A stretch of DNA of 64,000 nt from NCBI RefSeq assembly GCF_003991155.1, contig NZ_CP031293.1; one strand, written 5' to 3'. A program made the translations under genes and the position numbers. Below, piece by piece: positions 10,584 through 47,070 of this stretch (its first letter is position 1; each line of letters opens with the position of its first letter). The notes beneath the pieces are model-generated. The model worked only from the letters and a program-made list of their open reading frames with translations. It did not search any database and was not told the origin of the DNA. The DNA is from Escherichia coli (GTDB lineage: Bacteria > Pseudomonadota > Gammaproteobacteria > Enterobacterales > Enterobacteriaceae).

Positions 10584-11162
10584 TTAGCGCACGGCAGCCA
10601 TTGCCGGAAAATGGCGCGTGGTGCGAATCGGCAGCTGACGCAGTAAAAGCCAGACAATCACCGCTGTGAGAATTTTATCGACCAGGTTCGCGCCTATCAC
10701 CGTAATCGCCACCGACTCCACCAGGTTTTGCCCCATCGAGTGCATCCAGGCAACGAACAAATCGGCTCCGCTTCCTGTCACGCCGCCGAACAGCGCAGTA
10801 CGCAGCGGTACAGCGACGACCGTTACCGCAAGCGTAATAATCACGCCGCTAACAACGACTTTTGGCAGGGTGCGAAACCAACCCGCTCGCGCCAGCCAAC
10901 CGGCGACCAGGCCGATGACCATCGCGACGGGCGCAAATGCGGCGGCGATCGGGTCGGTCAGCAATCCCCAGAGTAAATTGGTCAGTAAACCGGTTAGCAT
11001 CCCGATCACCGGACCAAGCAGTACCGCGCTAATAAGTGTGCCGATGGAGTCGAGAAAAATAGGTAATTTGACCATGCTGGCCAGTTGCCCGCCGATCATA
11101 TTGATGGCGATAGAGATAACGATCAACACCAGTGCCTGACTGGAAAAGTGGCGACGCGCCAT
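10584..11162 (-). CDS. ECF transporter substrate-specific (S) component-like membrane protein, ~193 aa
   Basis: ORF 10584..11261 trimmed to the internal Met (MARRHFSSQ...) because the longer form overlaps the upstream gene; ~6 predicted TM segments, small size typical of S components. Confidence 0.55.
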   Translation of the reverse strand: MARRHFSSQALVLIVISIAINMIGGQLASMVKLPIFLDSIGTLISAVLLGPVIGMLTGLLTNLLWGLLTDPIAAAFAPVAMVIGLVAGWLARAGWFRTLPKVVVSGVIITLAVTVVAVPLRTALFGGVTGSGADLFVAWMHSMGQNLVESVAITVIGANLVDKILTAVIVWLLLRQLPIRTTRHFPAMAAVR

Positions 11163-11184
11163 AAGAAAACCTCTCTGAAAATAG

Positions 11185-11616
11185 TTATTTAACGGGGGAA
11201 ATATGCAACTCGTCGTAACCAGAAAGCGCGCAAAGCTGGCGGCTAAACGCCAGTTCCTCAAGGCAGCCGATCACCAGTTCAAGCGTGGTCCGCACGGTAC
11301 AGCCGGGCATCATATGACCGCCAAGCATCGTGCCGTGTGGATCGGAAACGCAGAGATGAAGATGTTCACCACTCTGTTCCAGCGTGCCGTTCAATGCGAT
11401 GACTTCGAACTTACCGCTTAGCAGGGCTGTGTTTTCTTGCCCGGCATAGCGTAAGGCGACGTCAGTCAGACTGCCGGTACAACCTGCAATCCACGCGGCG
11501 TGGAGTTGTTGTTGCTGCGCGAAGGCGCGTAATTGGGAGAGAACTTCCTGCCCGGGGAGCAGGCGCAGCGCGTAAAAACGTGCGGAGGAAGAATATGGGT
11601 AGGGCAATGTCATCAT
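11185..11616 (-). CDS. DUF296 / PPC-domain protein, 143 aa
   Basis: ORF 11185..11616; recalled similarity to the PPC (DUF296) domain family; first gene of the minus-strand island operon. Confidence 0.55.
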   Translation of the reverse strand: MMTLPYPYSSSARFYALRLLPGQEVLSQLRAFAQQQQLHAAWIAGCTGSLTDVALRYAGQENTALLSGKFEVIALNGTLEQSGEHLHLCVSDPHGTMLGGHMMPGCTVRTTLELVIGCLEELAFSRQLCALSGYDELHISPVK

Positions 11617-11987
11617 TGGAGTACTCCGAAACTCGGACGTATTGCGGATAATATCGACGCTGCATCAGTCATATTCTGATATAAGTCAGGGTTTGTGACG
11701 GCACAACGAAAAGATTTTGCTACGCTTATTCGTGATTCTGCAAAGTGGAATAAATTCCACAGGGGCGGGGCTGAAAACGTGACGTAAGTCAGATAATTGT
11801 CTTCTTTGACTGGACAATCATTCCTTTTATTCCACGTTTCGCTTATCCTAGCTGAAGCGTTTCAGTCGATTAAATGTTCGACAATTAACCAATCAGTCGC
11901 AGTTTGCGACAGGTAAGGTTTCCCCGAACGATTTGCTGGATTACTCTGTCTGGCAAATTTGCTCAGGGAAAACCTTGCAGGAGATCT

Positions 11988-17430: not shown

Positions 17431-18171
17431 GTGAAGTTCAAAGTTATCGCCCTGGCGGCATTAATGGGTATTAGCGGGATGGCAGCGCAGGCTAACGAAT
17501 TGCCGGATGGACCGCATATTGTCACCTCCGGTACGGCAAGCGTGGATGCGGTGCCAGACATTGCCACTCTTGCGATTGAAGTTAACGTGGCCGCGAAGGA
17601 TGCCGCTACTGCCAAGAAACAGGCAGATGAGCGCGTCGCACAATACATTTCCTTCCTTGAGCTCAATCAGATCGCGAAAAAAGATATCAGCTCAGCGAAC
17701 TTACGCACTCAGCCAGATTATGATTATCAGGATGGTAAAAGTATCCTGAAAGGCTACCGCGCAGTGAGAACGGTGGAAGTCACGCTCCGTCAGTTAGACA
17801 AACTGAATTCCTTGCTGGACGGCGCGCTAAAGGCGGGTCTTAACGAAATTCGTTCTGTGTCGCTGGGCGTGGCGCAGCCGGATGCCTATAAAGACAAAGC
17901 GCGTAAGGCAGCGATTGATAACGCGATTCATCAGGCGCAGGAACTGGCGAATGGCTTTAATCGCAAACTCGGGCCGGTATATAGCGTGCGTTATCATGTT
18001 TCCAACTATCAGCCCAGCCCAATGGTGCGGATGATGAAAGCTGATGCTGCACCGGTGTCCGCACAGGAAACTTACGAGCAGGCCGCTATTCAGTTTGATG
18101 ATCAGGTCGATGTAGTCTTCCAGTTAGAACCTGTGGATCAACCCCCCGCTAAAACACCTGCTGCACATTAA
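17431..18171 (+). CDS. yggE: DUF541/SIMPL-family periplasmic protein, 246 aa
   Basis: ORF 17431..18171 with GTG start and signal peptide (MKFKVIALAALMGISGMAAQA). Confidence 0.88.
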   Translation: MKFKVIALAALMGISGMAAQANELPDGPHIVTSGTASVDAVPDIATLAIEVNVAAKDAATAKKQADERVAQYISFLELNQIAKKDISSANLRTQPDYDYQDGKSILKGYRAVRTVEVTLRQLDKLNSLLDGALKAGLNEIRSVSLGVAQPDAYKDKARKAAIDNAIHQAQELANGFNRKLGPVYSVRYHVSNYQPSPMVRMMKADAAPVSAQETYEQAAIQFDDQVDVVFQLEPVDQPPAKTPAAH

Positions 18172-18328
18172 TACTTGTAGCCCGACGTATTCGTCGGGCT
18201 AATGTCTTTACCCGATATTGTCTCCTTTTTCTGTAAAACCATGACGTAATCACCTATCTTTGCTCGCGGTTTCATCAAGGATAGGCTGACTGAAACGGTT
18301 AAGCGGACAAGGATGCGGGAGAGGGGGG

Positions 18329-19219
18329 ATGGACATTTTTATTTCGAAAAAGATGCGCAATTTCATTTTATTAGCGCAAACCAATAATATTGCCCGGGCG
18401 GCAGAAAAAATCCATATGACGGCTTCGCGATTTGGCAAAAGCATTGCCGCGCTGGAAGAACAAATTGGCTATACGCTATTTACCCGCAAAGATAATAATA
18501 TCAGCCTCAATAAAGCCGGACAGGAACTGTATCAAAAACTGTTCCCGGTTTATCAACGACTTTCTGCGATTGATAATGAAATCCATAACTCAGGACGTCG
18601 TTCACGAGAAATTGTGATAGGCATAGATAATACTTATCCGACCATTATTTTTGATCAGTTGATTAGTCTCGGAGATAAGTACGAAGGCGTGACCGCCCAG
18701 CCAGTTGAGTTCAGCGAAAATGGCGTTATCGATAATCTTTTTGACCGTCAGTTAGATTTTAATATCTCCCCACAGCATGTATCTGCACGAGTTCAGGAAC
18801 TGGAAAACCTGACTATCAGTGAACTACCGCCGCTGCGATTGGGCTTTCTCGTTTCTCGCCGTTATGAAGAGCGACAAGAGCTGCTTCAGGAGCTGCCCTG
18901 GCTACAAATGCGCTTTCAGAATCGGGCCAATTTCGAAGCAATGATTGATGCGAATATGCGTCCTTGTGGGATCAATCCCACCATTATTTATCGTCCCTAC
19001 AGTTTTATGGCCAAAATCAGCGCCGTGGAGCGGGAACATTTTCTGACGGTGATCCCGCATTTTGCCTGGCGACTGGTGAATCCGGCAACGCTGAAATATT
19101 TTGATGCGCTGCACAGACCGATGTATATGCAGGAATATCTTTATTCAATCAGAAATCATCGTTATACCGCCACGATGCTTCAGCATATTGCTGAAGATCG
19201 TGACGGGACAAACCATTAA
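18329..19219 (+). CDS. ygfI: LysR-family transcriptional regulator
   Basis: ORF 18329..19219; N-terminal HTH, start codon choice (18329 or 18353) uncertain; 3' end abuts the sbm remnant. Confidence 0.8.
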
Positions 19220-20310
19220 CCCAGCATCGATCCGGTTGCAATTAAATTACGGTGTAAGTCGAAGACGTGGCTAAGATCGTGGTGAATATGTCCGCCGGAC
19301 GCATTTTCCAGATAGCGATGCAGATAATCCCGACACATAGGATGTGCACAATGATCAATGGTGGTGCGGATAACGTTGTTATACGGATCCTGTGCGCCAA
19401 ATCCACTGACCGCTTCGCTCCATAAATAACGTGCCGCACGCAACATGGCGGCGTTCATAAACAGATCCATGCCAATGCCGAAGAAAAACGACAGGCGAGG
19501 GACGAAGCCATCAATTTTCAGCCCGGCGGAGATTGCTGCTTTGATGTACTCAATCCTATCGGCGAGCGTAAATGCTACCTGCTGCACGCAGTTGGCACCC
19601 GCTTCACCCATGTGGTAACTGCTGATACTGATGGTATTAAATCGCGGCATGTTGCCGGAACACCAGGCGATGATGTCTGCGATAATACGCATTGACGGTT
19701 TTGGCGGGTAAATATAGGTATTGCGGCAGAGGTACTCTTTGAGGATATCGTTCTGAATGGTGCCGGTCAGTTTATCGGATGTAACACCTTGCTCTTCTGC
19801 GGCGACGATATAAAACGCCAGTACTGGTAGCACTGCGCCATTCATGGTCATAGAAACCGACATTTTATCCAGCGGGATCTGGTCGAACAGGACTTTCATA
19901 TCTTCCACGGTGTCGATAGCGACGCCCGCTTTGCCGACGTCGCCCGCCACGCGTGGGTTATCGGAGTCGTAGCCTCGGTGGGCGGCAAGGTCAAACGCAA
20001 CGGAAAGACCTTTTTGCCCGGCGGCCAGGTTACGGCGATAAAAAGCGTTGGACTCTTTTGCTGTCGAGAAACCAGCATACTGACGGATGGTCCACGGTTG
20101 GGTGGTATACATAGTGGCACGCGGGCCACGAACGTAGGGTGGCAAACCAGGAAGAGTACCCGTCACCTCCAGATTATCGAGATCGGCTTCGGTATACAGC
20201 GGCTTGATAGCGATCCCTTCCGCGGTTTGCTGAACCAGCGAGTCGACAGTTTTCTCCCGACGGCTCAATTCATTGTTGGCAAGCTGTTGCCACACCAGCA
20301 CGTTAGACAT
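19216..20310 (-). pseudogene. scpA: Methylmalonyl-CoA mutase (sbm/scpA) 5' remnant; rest of the operon absent
   Basis: ORF 19216..20331 matches the N-terminal ~330 residues of Sbm from MSNV... ([19 protein letters not shown]...), then diverges and terminates; no argK/scpB/scpC sequence follows. Confidence 0.75.
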
Positions 20311-24164: not shown

Positions 24165-24310
24165 ACGGTAAAGCCCTCACCGAAGCGAGGGCTTGAAGGA
24201 GAAGGGTTATGATGCGACTTGTCATCATACTGATTGTACTGTTACTCATAAGTTTCCCAGCTTATTAACAGTCAGTCTCAGGGGAGGAGTCATCCTCCCT
24301 TACCCTTACT
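24165..24310 (-). ncRNA. sibC: Sib-family antisense RNA antitoxin covering ibsC; ends approximate
   Basis: Inferred from the Ibs ORF on the opposite strand and flanking hairpins (24168-24189 and 24282-24299); boundaries not determinable from sequence alone. Confidence 0.45.
24209..24268 (+). CDS. ibsC: Type I toxin small hydrophobic peptide, Ibs family, 19 aa
   Basis: atgatgcgacttgtcatcatactgattgtactgttactcataagtttcccagcttattaa encodes MMRLVIILIVLLLISFPAY; not in the supplied ORF track (too short); sits in the serA-fau intergenic region where K-12 carries sibC/ibsC (recall). Confidence 0.7.
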   Translation: MMRLVIILIVLLLISFPAY

Positions 24311-24368
24311 CACTAAATTAGGTTAAAGAATCAACGATGTCAATCAGGGCGATGCAGGTGTGTCGCCC

Positions 24369-24989: not shown

Positions 24990-25175
24990 AGGGAATCTCC
25001 GAGATGCCGCCGCAGGCTGTAACCCTTGAACCCTTGGTTCAAGGTGAATGTGTCGTCGCAGTTTTAAGGCTTCTCGGACGGACCGAGCATGCTCACCAAC
25101 CGCGGAGCGCCACATTCTTGTGGTATGAAATATCGGCTCAGGGGACTGGCCCGCTTGCGAACATCTCAGAGAAAT
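24990..25175 (-). ncRNA. ssrS: 6S RNA
   Basis: Minus strand reads atttctctgagatgttcgcaagcgggccagtcccctgagccgatatttcatacc...ggcatctcggagattccct, matching the E. coli 6S RNA sequence as I recall it. Confidence 0.92.
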
Positions 25176-42029: not shown

Positions 42030-43763
42030 GTGAAACAACAGATACAACTTCGTCGCCGTGAAGTCGATGAAACGGCAGACTTGCCCGCTGAATTGCCTCC
42101 CTTGCTGCGCCGTTTATACGCCAGCCGGGGAGTACGCAGTGCGCAAGAACTGAAACGCAGTGTTAAAGGTATGTTGCCCTGGCAGCAACTGAGCGGCGTC
42201 GAAAAGGCCGTTGAGATCCTTTACAACGCTTTTCGCGAAGGAACGCGGATTATTGTGGTCGGTGATTTCGACGCCGACGGCGCGACCAGCACGGCTCTAA
42301 GCGTGCTGGCGATGCGCTCGCTTGGTTGCAGCAATATCGACTACCTGGTACCAAACCGTTTCGAAGACGGTTACGGCTTAAGCCCGGAAGTGGTCGATCA
42401 GGCTCATGCCCGTGGCGCGCAGTTAATTGTCACGGTGGATAACGGTATTTCCTCCCATGCGGGGGTTGAACACGCTCGTTCGTTGGGCATTCCGGTTATT
42501 GTTACCGATCACCATTTGCCAGGCGACACATTACCCGCAGCGGAAGCGATCATTAACCCTAACTTGCGCGACTGTAATTTCCCGTCGAAATCACTGGCAG
42601 GCGTGGGTGTGGCGTTTTATCTGATGCTGGCGCTGCGCACCTTTTTGCGCGATCAGGGCTGGTTTGATGAGCGCGGCATCGCAATTCCTAATCTGGCAGA
42701 ACTGCTGGATCTGGTCGCGCTGGGAACAGTGGCGGACGTCGTGCCGCTGGACGCTAATAATCGCATTCTGACCTGGCAGGGGATGAGTCGCATCCGTGCC
42801 GGTAAGTGCCGTCCGGGGATTAAAGCGCTGCTGGAAGTGGCAAATCGCGATGCGCAAAAACTCGCCGCCAGCGATTTAGGTTTTGCGCTGGGGCCACGTC
42901 TCAATGCTGCCGGGCGACTGGATGATATGTCCGTTGGTGTGGCGCTGTTGCTGTGCGACAACATCGGCGAAGCGCGCGTGCTGGCAAATGAACTCGATGC
43001 GCTAAACCAGACGCGAAAAGAGATCGAACAAGGAATGCAGATTGAAGCCCTGACCCTGTGCGAGAAACTGGAGCGCAGCCGTGACACACTACCCGGCGGG
43101 CTGGCAATGTATCACCCCGAATGGCATCAGGGCGTGGTCGGTATTCTGGCTTCGCGCATCAAAGAGCGTTTTCACCGTCCGGTTATCGCCTTTGCGCCAG
43201 CAGGTGATGGTACGCTGAAAGGTTCCGGTCGCTCCATTCAGGGGCTACATATGCGTGATGCGCTGGAGCGGTTAGACACGCTCTACCCTGGCATGATGCT
43301 CAAGTTTGGCGGTCATGCGATGGCGGCGGGTTTGTCGCTGGAAGAGGATAAATTCGAACTCTTTCAACAACGGTTTGGCGAACTGGTTACCGAGTGGTTA
43401 GATCCTTCTTTATTGCAAGGGGAAGTGGTATCAGACGGCCCATTAAGTGCGGCAGAGATGACCATGGAAGTGGCGCAACTGCTGCGTGATGCTGGCCCGT
43501 GGGGACAAATGTTCCCGGAGCCGCTGTTTGACGGTCATTTCCGTCTGCTGCAACAGCGGCTGGTGGGCGAGCGTCATTTGAAAGTCATGGTCGAGCCGGT
43601 CGGCGGCGGTCCACTGCTGGACGGGATTGCTTTTAATGTCGATACTGCCCTCTGGCCGGATAACGGCGTGCGCGAAGTGCAACTGGCTTACAAGCTCGAT
43701 ATCAACGAGTTTCGCGGCAACCGAAGCCTGCAAATTATCATCGACAATATCTGGCCAATTTAG
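42030..43763 (+). CDS. recJ: Single-stranded-DNA-specific 5'-3' exonuclease RecJ, 577 aa
   Basis: ORF 42030..43763 with GTG start; DHH motifs (VVGDFDADGATS, TDHH). Confidence 0.95.
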   Translation: MKQQIQLRRREVDETADLPAELPPLLRRLYASRGVRSAQELKRSVKGMLPWQQLSGVEKAVEILYNAFREGTRIIVVGDFDADGATSTALSVLAMRSLGCSNIDYLVPNRFEDGYGLSPEVVDQAHARGAQLIVTVDNGISSHAGVEHARSLGIPVIVTDHHLPGDTLPAAEAIINPNLRDCNFPSKSLAGVGVAFYLMLALRTFLRDQGWFDERGIAIPNLAELLDLVALGTVADVVPLDANNRILTWQGMSRIRAGKCRPGIKALLEVANRDAQKLAASDLGFALGPRLNAAGRLDDMSVGVALLLCDNIGEARVLANELDALNQTRKEIEQGMQIEALTLCEKLERSRDTLPGGLAMYHPEWHQGVVGILASRIKERFHRPVIAFAPAGDGTLKGSGRSIQGLHMRDALERLDTLYPGMMLKFGGHAMAAGLSLEEDKFELFQQRFGELVTEWLDPSLLQGEVVSDGPLSAAEMTMEVAQLLRDAGPWGQMFPEPLFDGHFRLLQQRLVGERHLKVMVEPVGGGPLLDGIAFNVDTALWPDNGVREVQLAYKLDINEFRGNRSLQIIIDNIWPI

Positions 43764-43853
43764 CGTCATCTTCTCTATAAAAAAGAGCGTGGATTGGGTA
43801 CAATCCCGCTCTTATCACCGCATTTTGACTAGCTCAATAAAAGAAATCAGACC

Positions 43854-44952
43854 ATGTTTGAAATTAATCCGGTAAATAATCGCATTCAGGACCTCACGGA
43901 ACGCTCCGACGTTCTTAGGGGGTATCTTTGACTACGACGCCAAGAAAGAGCGTCTGGAAGAAGTAAACGCCGAGCTGGAACAGCCGGATGTCTGGAACGA
44001 ACCCGAACGCGCACAGGCGCTGGGTAAAGAGCGTTCCTCCCTCGAAGCCGTTGTCGACACCCTCGACCAAATGAAACAGGGGCTGGAAGATGTTTCTGGT
44101 CTGCTGGAACTGGCTGTAGAAGCTGACGACGAAGAAACCTTTAACGAAGCCGTTGCTGAACTCGACGCTCTGGAAGAAAAACTGGCGCAGCTTGAGTTCC
44201 GCCGTATGTTCTCTGGCGAATATGACAGCGCCGACTGCTACCTCGATATTCAGGCGGGGTCTGGCGGCACGGAAGCACAGGACTGGGCGAGCATGCTTGA
44301 GCGTATGTATCTGCGCTGGGCAGAATCGCGTGGTTTCAAAACTGAAATCATCGAAGAGTCGGAAGGTGAAGTGGCGGGTATTAAATCCGTGACGATCAAA
44401 ATCTCCGGCGATTACGCTTACGGCTGGCTGCGTACGGAAACCGGCGTTCACCGCCTGGTGCGTAAGAGCCCGTTTGACTCCGGCGGTCGTCGCCACACGT
44501 CGTTCAGCTCCGCGTTTGTTTACCCGGAAGTTGATGATGATATTGATATCGAAATCAACCCGGCGGATCTGCGCATTGACGTTTATCGCGCGTCCGGCGC
44601 GGGCGGTCAGCACGTTAACCGTACCGAATCTGCGGTGCGTATTACCCACATCCCGACCGGGATCGTGACCCAGTGCCAGAACGACCGTTCCCAGCACAAG
44701 AACAAAGACCAGGCCATGAAGCAGATGAAAGCGAAGCTTTATGAACTGGAGATGCAGAAGAAAAATGCTGAGAAACAGGCTATGGAAGATAACAAATCTG
44801 ACATCGGCTGGGGCAGCCAGATTCGTTCTTATGTCCTTGATGACTCCCGCATTAAAGATCTGCGCACCGGGGTAGAAACCCGCAACACGCAGGCCGTGCT
44901 GGACGGCAGCCTGGATCAATTTATCGAAGCAAGTTTGAAAGCAGGGTTATGA
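43854..44952 (+). CDS. prfB: Peptide chain release factor 2, expressed via +1 programmed frameshift (43854..43928 joined to 43930..44952), 365 aa
   Basis: Frame 0 [25 protein letters not shown] ends at in-frame TGA 43929-43931; the +1 frame continues [18 protein letters not shown]... to 44952 (listed ORF 44071..44952 is the same frame); SPF and GGQ motifs present. Confidence 0.93.
43914..43932 (+). promoter_or_regulatory. prfB autoregulatory +1 frameshift site
   Basis: agggggtatctttgac: internal Shine-Dalgarno-like AGGGGG, then CUU UGA C slippery/stop context. Confidence 0.9.
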
Positions 44953-44961
44953 GGAACCAAC

Positions 44962-46479
44962 ATGTCTGAACAAAACGCACAGGGCGCTGACGCGGTAGTC
45001 GATCTTAACAATGAACTGAAAACGCGTCGTGAGAAGCTGGCGAACCTGCGTGAGCAGGGGATTGCCTTCCCGAACGATTTCCGTCGCGATCATACCTCTG
45101 ACCAATTGCACGCAGAATTCGACGGTAAAGAGAACGAAGAACTGGAAGCGCTGAACATCGAAGTCGCCGTTGCTGGCCGCATGATGACCCGTCGTATTAT
45201 GGGTAAAGCGTCTTTCGTTACCCTGCAGGACGTTGGCGGTCGCATTCAGCTGTACGTTGCCCGTGACGATCTGCCGGAAGGCGTTTACAACGAGCAGTTC
45301 AAAAAATGGGACCTCGGCGATATCCTCGGCGCGAAAGGTAAACTGTTCAAAACCAAAACCGGCGAACTGTCTATCCACTGTACCGAGCTGCGTCTGCTGA
45401 CCAAAGCACTGCGTCCGCTGCCGGATAAATTCCACGGCTTGCAGGATCAGGAAGCGCGCTATCGTCAGCGTTATCTGGATCTCATCTCTAACGATGAATC
45501 CCGCAACACCTTTAAAGTGCGCTCGCAGATCCTCTCTGGTATTCGCCAGTTCATGGTGAACCGCGGCTTTATGGAAGTTGAAACGCCGATGATGCAGGTG
45601 ATCCCTGGCGGTGCCGCTGCGCGTCCGTTCATCACCCACCATAATGCGCTGGATCTCGACATGTACCTGCGTATCGCGCCGGAACTGTACCTCAAGCGTC
45701 TGGTGGTCGGTGGCTTCGAGCGTGTATTCGAAATCAACCGTAACTTCCGTAACGAAGGTATTTCCGTACGTCATAACCCAGAGTTCACCATGATGGAACT
45801 CTATATGGCTTACGCAGATTACAAAGATCTGATCGAGCTGACCGAATCGCTGTTCCGTACTCTGGCACAGGATATTCTCGGTAAGACGGAAGTGACCTAC
45901 GGCGACGTAACGCTGGACTTCGGTAAACCGTTCGAAAAACTGACCATGCGTGAAGCGATCAAGAAATATCGCCCGGAAACCGACATGGCGGATCTGGACA
46001 ACTTCGACTCTGCGAAAGCGATTGCTGAATCTATCGGCATCCACGTTGAGAAGAGCTGGGGTCTGGGCCGTATCGTTACCGAGATCTTCGAAGAAGTGGC
46101 AGAAGCACATCTGATCCAGCCGACCTTCATTACTGAATATCCGGCAGAAGTTTCTCCTCTGGCGCGTCGTAACGACGTTAACCCGGAAATCACAGACCGC
46201 TTTGAGTTCTTCATTGGTGGGCGTGAAATCGGTAACGGCTTTAGCGAGCTGAATGACGCGGAAGATCAGGCGCAGCGCTTCCTGGATCAGGTTGCCGCGA
46301 AAGATGCAGGTGACGACGAAGCGATGTTCTACGACGAAGATTATGTCACCGCACTGGAACATGGCTTACCGCCGACAGCAGGTCTGGGAATTGGTATCGA
46401 CCGTATGGTAATGCTGTTCACCAACAGCCATACCATCCGCGACGTTATTCTGTTCCCGGCGATGCGTCCGGTAAAATAA
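44962..46479 (+). CDS. lysS: Lysyl-tRNA synthetase (constitutive), 505 aa
   Basis: ORF 44962..46479; class II aaRS motifs; lies 9 bp after prfB. Confidence 0.95.
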
Positions 46480-46498
46480 GCATTACGTTATGCTCATA

Positions 46499-46524
46499 AC
46501 CCCGGCAAATGTCGGGGTTTTTTA
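46499..46524 (+). terminator. Intrinsic terminator after lysS, overlapping the convergent idi stop
   Basis: ccccggcaaatgtcgggg hairpin followed by ttttttaa. Confidence 0.7.
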
Positions 46525-47070
46525 ATTGTGCTGCGCGAAAGCAGACAACAATTTTCTTGCTTCACTATTGGCTGCCTGCATCACCATCCACGGACTGAAC
46601 GCCCACGGCGTGGCATCAATACCGTGTAATACATCTGCTAAATCACACCATTGATAATCCATCACTTCATCATCGTTGATCTGTAACGCACTGGTGGTGC
46701 GTGCGGCAAATACCGGACACACTTCATTTTCCACAATGCCATTCGGATCGGTGGCGCGATAGTAGAAGTCAGGATAGATAGATTCAGGAGGCGTAATTTC
46801 CACGCCAAGCTCATAACGGCAACGGCGGATCACCGCGTCTTCGTTGCTTTCTCCCAGTTGTGGGTGCCCACAAACCGAGTTAGTCCACACGCCAGGCCAC
46901 GCTTTTTTGCTAAGGGCGCGGCGGGTAACTAATAATTGCCCTTTGGCATTAAACAGCCAGCAGGAGAACGCGAGATGTAAGAGAGTGTCTGCCGTGTGTG
47001 CGGCATACTTTTCCAGCGTACCCGTGGGAACTCCCTGTGCATTCAATAAAATGACGTGTTCCGTTTGCAT
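46522..47070 (-). CDS. idi: Isopentenyl-diphosphate delta-isomerase (type 1, Nudix), 182 aa
   Basis: ORF 46522..47070 ([25 protein letters not shown]...). Confidence 0.93.

Follow-up and report, generated by a model that had tools for sequence, protein, structure and literature searches.

The DNA analyzed here is a 64,000-nucleotide stretch of the Escherichia coli genome (the window), and its prfB locus raises the question of whether a release factor 2 (RF2) gene that is spread over two reading frames, with a stop codon after 25 codons of the first, is an intact gene expressed by frameshifting or the product of some other event. We read positions 43854-44952 (+) as E. coli prfB with the canonical autoregulatory programmed +1 frameshift, at a probability of about 0.98, where slippage and feedback are those reported in the literature from E. 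coli experiments with an identical sequence. The features of the locus and of its surroundings are collected in Table 1.

Table 1. Positions of the prfB frameshift elements, gene segments and neighbouring features in the window.
Feature	Position	Strand	Basis
recJ, upstream neighbour, 90-nt intergenic region to prfB	42030..43763	+	context
prfB start ATG	43854-43856	+	
prfB frame-0 segment, codons 1-25	43854..43928	+	translation; matches residues 1-25 of RF2 from PDB chains and orthologues
Internal Shine-Dalgarno-like AGGGGG (codons Arg22-Gly23), frameshift stimulator	43917..43922	+	sequence; predicted duplex with 16S 3' tail; consensus element in PMC12421855
3-nt spacer TAT (Tyr24), from the Shine-Dalgarno-like element to the slippery codon	43923..43925	+	spacing conserved; TAT in most orthologous loci
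Slippery run CTTT (Leu25 CTT and first base of TGA), site of tRNA-Leu re-pairing (CUU to UUU) in the P site	43926..43929	+	sequence; slippery sequence defined in PMC12421855
In-frame RF2-specific stop TGA (codon 26), then C at 43932, weak termination context	43929..43932	+	sequence; role of context in PMC12421855
prfB +1-frame segment, codons 26-365 (GAC Asp26 to Leu365) and terminal TGA at 44950-44952	43930..44952	+	Pfam, TIGR00020, PDB RF2
SPF motif (residues 205-207 of the composite)	44467-44475	+	in +1 segment
Ala246 codon GCG of RF2	44590-44592	+	
GGQ motif (residues 250-252 of the composite)	44602-44610	+	in +1 segment
lysS (lysine-tRNA ligase), start 9 nt past the prfB stop	44962..46479	+	context, outside the frameshift device
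Terminator-like hairpin and T-run after lysS	46498..46519	+	consensus scan only

Both frames of the locus were translated. From the ATG at 43854, frame 0 runs for 25 codons and ends at the TGA at 43929-43931, which is codon 26 and lies between CTT (43926-43928) and C (43932), as had been predicted for a UGA within CUU UGA C. The release-factor body was predicted in the +1 frame and is found there: 340 codons are open from GAC at 43930 to the TGA at 44950-44952, so that the composite protein has 25 + 340 = 365 amino acids, the length given for the true product in the original prediction. Upstream of the junction the +1 frame is shut by a TAA at 43873, and no ATG, GTG or TTG occurs in this frame from 43876 until the first one, the ATG at 44071. 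For this reason the mechanical list of open reading frames contains only 44071..44952 (293 aa), which agrees with what had been said of standard ORF finders.

The composite protein was identified as RF2 by comparison with structures and with protein families. First, it aligns over residues 1-365 with the solved E. coli RF2 chains in the PDB (E about 1e-240), and the junction (...LRGYL/DYDAKK...) is crossed without a gap, the RF2 alignment continuing in the +1 frame. The sequences that the depositors gave for these structures include the frameshift junction. A single substitution (Leu/Val) separates the composite from 1gqe, and the sole difference from the K-12 chain (1ml5 and others) is at residue 246 (Ala in the window, Thr in K-12). 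Furthermore, the protein scores 525.9 bits on the NCBIfam prfB model TIGR00020 (cut-off 370), and it reaches the cut-off of none of the RF1 models. Finally, Pfam detects the PCRF and RF-1 domains. The Ala246 form of RF2 is fully active and is found in E. coli B and most lineages, whereas Thr246 is peculiar to K-12 (PMC5373646). The window, with Ala246, is therefore not from K-12.

These alignments also bear on the possibility that the region holds two independent genes, a small ORF of 25 codons and an N-terminally shorter RF2 of 293 aa initiated at the ATG at 44071. Such an arrangement matches the output of a mechanical ORF finder. However, residues 1-72 of the composite, which are encoded partly in frame 0 and partly in the +1 frame 5' of 44071, match the RF2 structures residue for residue, and the N-terminal residues are conserved in the orthologues that align from residue 1-2. 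The +1 frame, moreover, offers none of the three start codons named above between its stop and 44071. We consider that two separate genes have practically no chance of being the right description, and that the locus encodes one RF2 joined across the frameshift.

The site itself reads CTT-AGG-GGG-TAT-CTT-TGA-C. The AGGGGG element, predicted three nucleotides upstream, is present at 43917-43922 and is followed by the spacer TAT; it is located 3 nt 5' of CUU and 6 nt 5' of the stop. The central claim of the original prediction, that the prfB +1 frameshift site is intact, was thus correct to the base, with all elements at the positions given for them. The consensus described for prfB consists of AGGGGG, a 3-nt spacer, CTTT, TGA and then C (Prince et al. 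2025, PMC12421855), and every sequence-level defining feature of the prfB programmed +1 frameshift that we tested was found at the locus. When the 64 kb were searched on both strands with at most one mismatch, the pattern AGGGGGNNNCTTTGAC occurred once, while 0.06 occurrences are expected from shuffles. Within the coding sequence of prfB, no other site is predicted to bind the anti-Shine-Dalgarno sequence as strongly as AGGGGG (-10.3 kcal/mol, against -8.7 for the second-best site in the gene), and the AGGGGG duplex ranks in the top 0.06% of all 8-mers on the + strand of the window.

A further element was considered, a hairpin in the mRNA downstream of the slippery codon (43926-43991), which would contribute to the frameshift as hairpins do at many -1 sites. 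The 80 nt from CUU fold at -21.7 kcal/mol (z = -2.0), marginally better than shuffles, of which 7 in 200 did as well, and 45-50 of 50 orthologues retain the outer pairs CUUU:GAAG. However, these conserved outer pairs coincide with the fixed motif and with the codons of a conserved Glu-Glu-Val, and most orthologues do not keep the inner helix intact. No covariation was seen in the ungapped alignment of the 50 orthologues, where pairing cells amounted to 60.7% against 60.4% in shuffles and the covariation score was 0.124 against 0.119, a value reached by 141 of 500 shuffles. Besides, the only elements required for the frameshift according to PMC12421855 are the Shine-Dalgarno-like sequence, CUUU and UGA-C. 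Since the invariant pairs are uninformative and the inner helix is not conserved, the hairpin is neither required nor strictly excluded by these data. Downstream RNA structure was rejected as an unsupported stimulator, given its marginal fold and the lack of covariation in the 50 orthologues, and it is very doubtful that a hairpin starting at CUUU tunes the efficiency of frameshifting alongside the other three elements.

The mechanism of RF2 autoregulation and the roles of the elements have been described (PMC12421855), and we infer the slippage event and the RF2 feedback in this strain from the published E. coli experiments on the same sequence. Ribosomes would start at the ATG at 43854, read 25 codons and pause, the P site being occupied by tRNA-Leu on CUU and the A site holding the RF2-specific UGA, whose context UGA-C is poor. 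At this weak stop, termination by RF2 would compete with a +1 slip. When RF2 is abundant, termination at UGA would release a peptide of 25 residues. When RF2 is scarce, the pause would allow AGGGGG to pair with the anti-Shine-Dalgarno tail of 16S rRNA, which would stimulate slippage; the peptidyl-tRNA-Leu would then slip from CUU to UUU, GAC would enter the A site, and the remaining 340 codons would be read to give the 365-aa RF2. Because the choice between termination and slippage depends on the abundance of RF2, the factor would set its own level (PMC12421855). At the endogenous E. coli locus, frameshifting measured by ribosome profiling was about 28% when RF2 was the K-12 form and about 21% when it was the Ala246 (B-type) form, and it rose to about 47% in the K-12 strain without RF3 (PMC5373646).

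Other ways of passing the stop codon were also weighed, namely read-through of UGA or selenocysteine insertion, and transcriptional slippage in the G5 or T3 run instead of ribosomal slippage. UGA-C is leaky, and homopolymers can make a polymerase slip. However, frame 0 has no RF2 similarity after the UGA and meets a second stop 31 codons on, while the RF2 alignment goes on in the +1 frame. Neither a SECIS element nor any other Rfam family reaches threshold at the site: the whole window was searched at the gathering score and positions 43700-44200 at E up to 10, and no family covers the frameshift site, the weak matches of the second scan (E 1.6-6.4) being at chance level and far under their gathering scores. 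Recoding by selenocysteine or by UGA read-through was rejected, as neither a coding frame 0 after the UGA nor a SECIS hairpin was found. Transcriptional slippage is not known to occur in runs as short as five G or three T. The event at prfB is, furthermore, assigned to the ribosome and depends on pairing between the Shine-Dalgarno-like sequence and the anti-Shine-Dalgarno sequence and on the RF2 level (PMC12421855). All these alternatives taken together are extremely improbable, and ribosomal +1 slippage remains our reading of the junction.

The conservation of the cassette was examined within E. coli and across bacteria. Of 5426 complete E. coli genomes, 5425 carry a single copy of the 1401-nt locus, and several chromosomes are 100% identical to it. 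The exact 40-nt cassette (43895-43934) is shared by 5416 of these 5425 genomes and is absent from the other 9, which also have prfB. Across species, a scan for the 16-mer AGGGGGTNNCTTTGAC with one genome per species, in a collection of 100,044 species, returned at least 120 loci. Among the 120 matches listed, 106 are in prfB, the composite of frame 0 and the +1 frame having RF2 homology, and the remaining 14 look like chance matches. These loci were picked by the motif, and hence measure its specificity for prfB and not its frequency, which has to be taken from the literature: a premature stop and frameshift of prfB was reported in 64% of 12,753 genomes (Prince et al. 2025, PMC12421855). The hosts of the listed prfB loci include Vibrio, Chromatium, Bacillus, Streptococcus and Staphylococcus, and the groups represented include Gammaproteobacteria, Bacillota, Bacteroidota, Omnitrophota, Chlorobiota and a Rickettsiales MAG. 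Their architecture consists of a short frame-0 leader, typically of 20-30 codons, and then a +1 ORF of about 340 aa. Where the gene is complete, the composite can in most listed loci be aligned with the RF2 of the window from residues 1-14 to 361-365, at 43-88% identity. The prfB sites of other bacteria are thus like that of the window in the cassette, in the 3-nt spacing and in having the RF2 body in the +1 frame. They differ from it in the spacer codon, which varies (TAT, TCT, TAC, TTT and others), and in the length of the leader, which is about 20-30 codons in the loci with an unambiguous first start codon.

This conservation decides on the objection that prfB is here a pseudogene or an assembly artefact, its reading frame having been broken by a disabling mutation or by an error in sequencing. 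Sequencing often gains or loses a single base in homopolymers such as G5 and T3, and it is precisely these runs that are one base different in two E. coli assemblies. However, the two-frame form is found both in nearly all the E. coli genomes that hold the locus and in the 106 listed loci from distant phyla, the break lies inside a specific, conserved stimulatory cassette, and RefSeq annotates it as programmed. RF2 is also essential in E. coli, which counts against a pseudogene. A frameshifted pseudogene would show a sporadic, unconserved break without recoding signals; the break found here is of the opposite kind, the conservation data effectively refute that class, and we give damage or error a negligible probability beside an intact, programmed prfB.

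Of the two complete assemblies, in E. coli O157:H7 SS17 (NZ_CP008805.1) a 1-nt deletion in the cassette leaves CTTGAC in place of CTTTGAC, and in E. coli BH100 substr. MG2014 (NZ_CP024650.2) another leaves AGGGG in place of AGGGGG. Either deletion merges the two frames of prfB into one, and the annotation of neither gene mentions a 'programmed frameshift'. They may be either real losses of autoregulation or homopolymer or polishing errors. Comparable single-base prfB deletions arise as compensatory mutations in laboratory lines of Pseudomonas fluorescens (bioRxiv 10.64898/2026.01.08.698412). In-frame prfB alleles, which are found in Actinomycetota and others and include the P. fluorescens deletions, specify the same protein product as the prfB of the window but are without the internal UGA and hence without autoregulation. 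The SS17 and BH100 MG2014 genes resemble this class through their 1-nt deletions, whereas the window is outside it.

The comparison with annotated prfB genes gave the same result. In RefSeq, 100% identical DNA carries prfB between recJ and lysS with the same start and end, as a two-piece joined CDS described as a 'programmed frameshift'. The original prediction held that the product must be annotated manually, and this was overstated: the NCBI pipeline makes the join automatically, RefSeq records carry it, and the NCBIfam model TIGR00020 is of the kind 'exception'. What is at stake for annotation is that the locus be given as one 365-aa product joined across 43928/43930 and not as a 293-aa fragment, which current NCBI annotation does. 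The window agrees with the E. coli prfB type system in organism, in the order recJ-prfB-lysS, in the UGA at codon 26, in AGGGGG-TAT-CTT-TGA-C and in the 365 aa of the product; the site is identical, and the RF2 of the window differs from that of K-12 in having Ala246 for Thr246. The site represents the prfB +1 programmed frameshift in its type form, not as a variant, and it is already known. Programmed +1 frameshifting and the autoregulation of translation factors both have their textbook case here, and an intact site in E. coli is expected and opens no new question. The E. coli prfB +1 frameshift was reportedly described by Craigen and Caskey in 1986 and by Weiss and colleagues in 1987, and peptide evidence for it was reportedly obtained long ago by Craigen and colleagues in 1985/1986.

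Around prfB, the terminal stop of the gene is also the RF2-specific TGA (TTA TGA G, in the region 44947-44964). A GAGGA Shine-Dalgarno sequence for lysS, 9 nt 5' of its ATG, overlaps this stop, an overlap which suggests that lysS may be translationally coupled to prfB. A simple consensus scan for promoters and terminators over 43500-46700 found no prfB promoter in the 90-nt recJ-prfB spacer, and its only terminator-like hits were a hairpin downstream of lysS and a minus-strand one at 43806-43791. The former hairpin, known from this consensus scan only, probably ends a prfB-lysS transcript. The spacer also contains an inverted repeat at 43781-43814 (AAGAGCG-TGGATTG-GGTA-CAATCC-CGCTCTT), of which the scan flagged just the core, on the minus strand; this repeat may be the recJ terminator.

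In the rest of the window, a tRNA scan found no tRNA, and only two Rfam families exceed their gathering scores: 6S RNA (ssrS) at 24992-25175 (-), with 139.8 bits, and a Sib antitoxin RNA at 24193-24343 (-), with 136.5 bits, where a related strain has the ibsC toxin annotated at the equivalent position. Relative to FDAARGOS_1284 there is a 1277-bp insertion at 1303-2579, between tkt and a prohibitin-family gene, which is a copy of IS621 (IS110 family). Its transposase ORF encodes 326 aa (1407..2387, -) with Pfam domains PF01548 and PF02371. Copies that are 100% identical are annotated elsewhere in other E. coli genomes as 'IS110-like element IS621 family transposase', and matches occur in 2244 of 5426 genomes.

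Two other segments differ between strains. Relative to 2016C-3878, about 4.35 kb are absent at ~17900-19384, from within scpA to within scpC and including meaB and scpB, which amounts to a partial deletion of the scp operon; in the matching strain FDAARGOS_1284 only pseudogene remnants are annotated there. The other, at ~7250-11770 between yggC and epd, is a variable segment in which the window is colinear with FDAARGOS_1284, where ECF-transporter genes, a PPC-domain protein and a truncated glpX are found, while 2016C-3878 is without the ECF-transporter segment and has an intact glpX. The latter strain is 100% identical to the window over the prfB locus and 99.3% identical over 19384-64000, and is rearranged before that.
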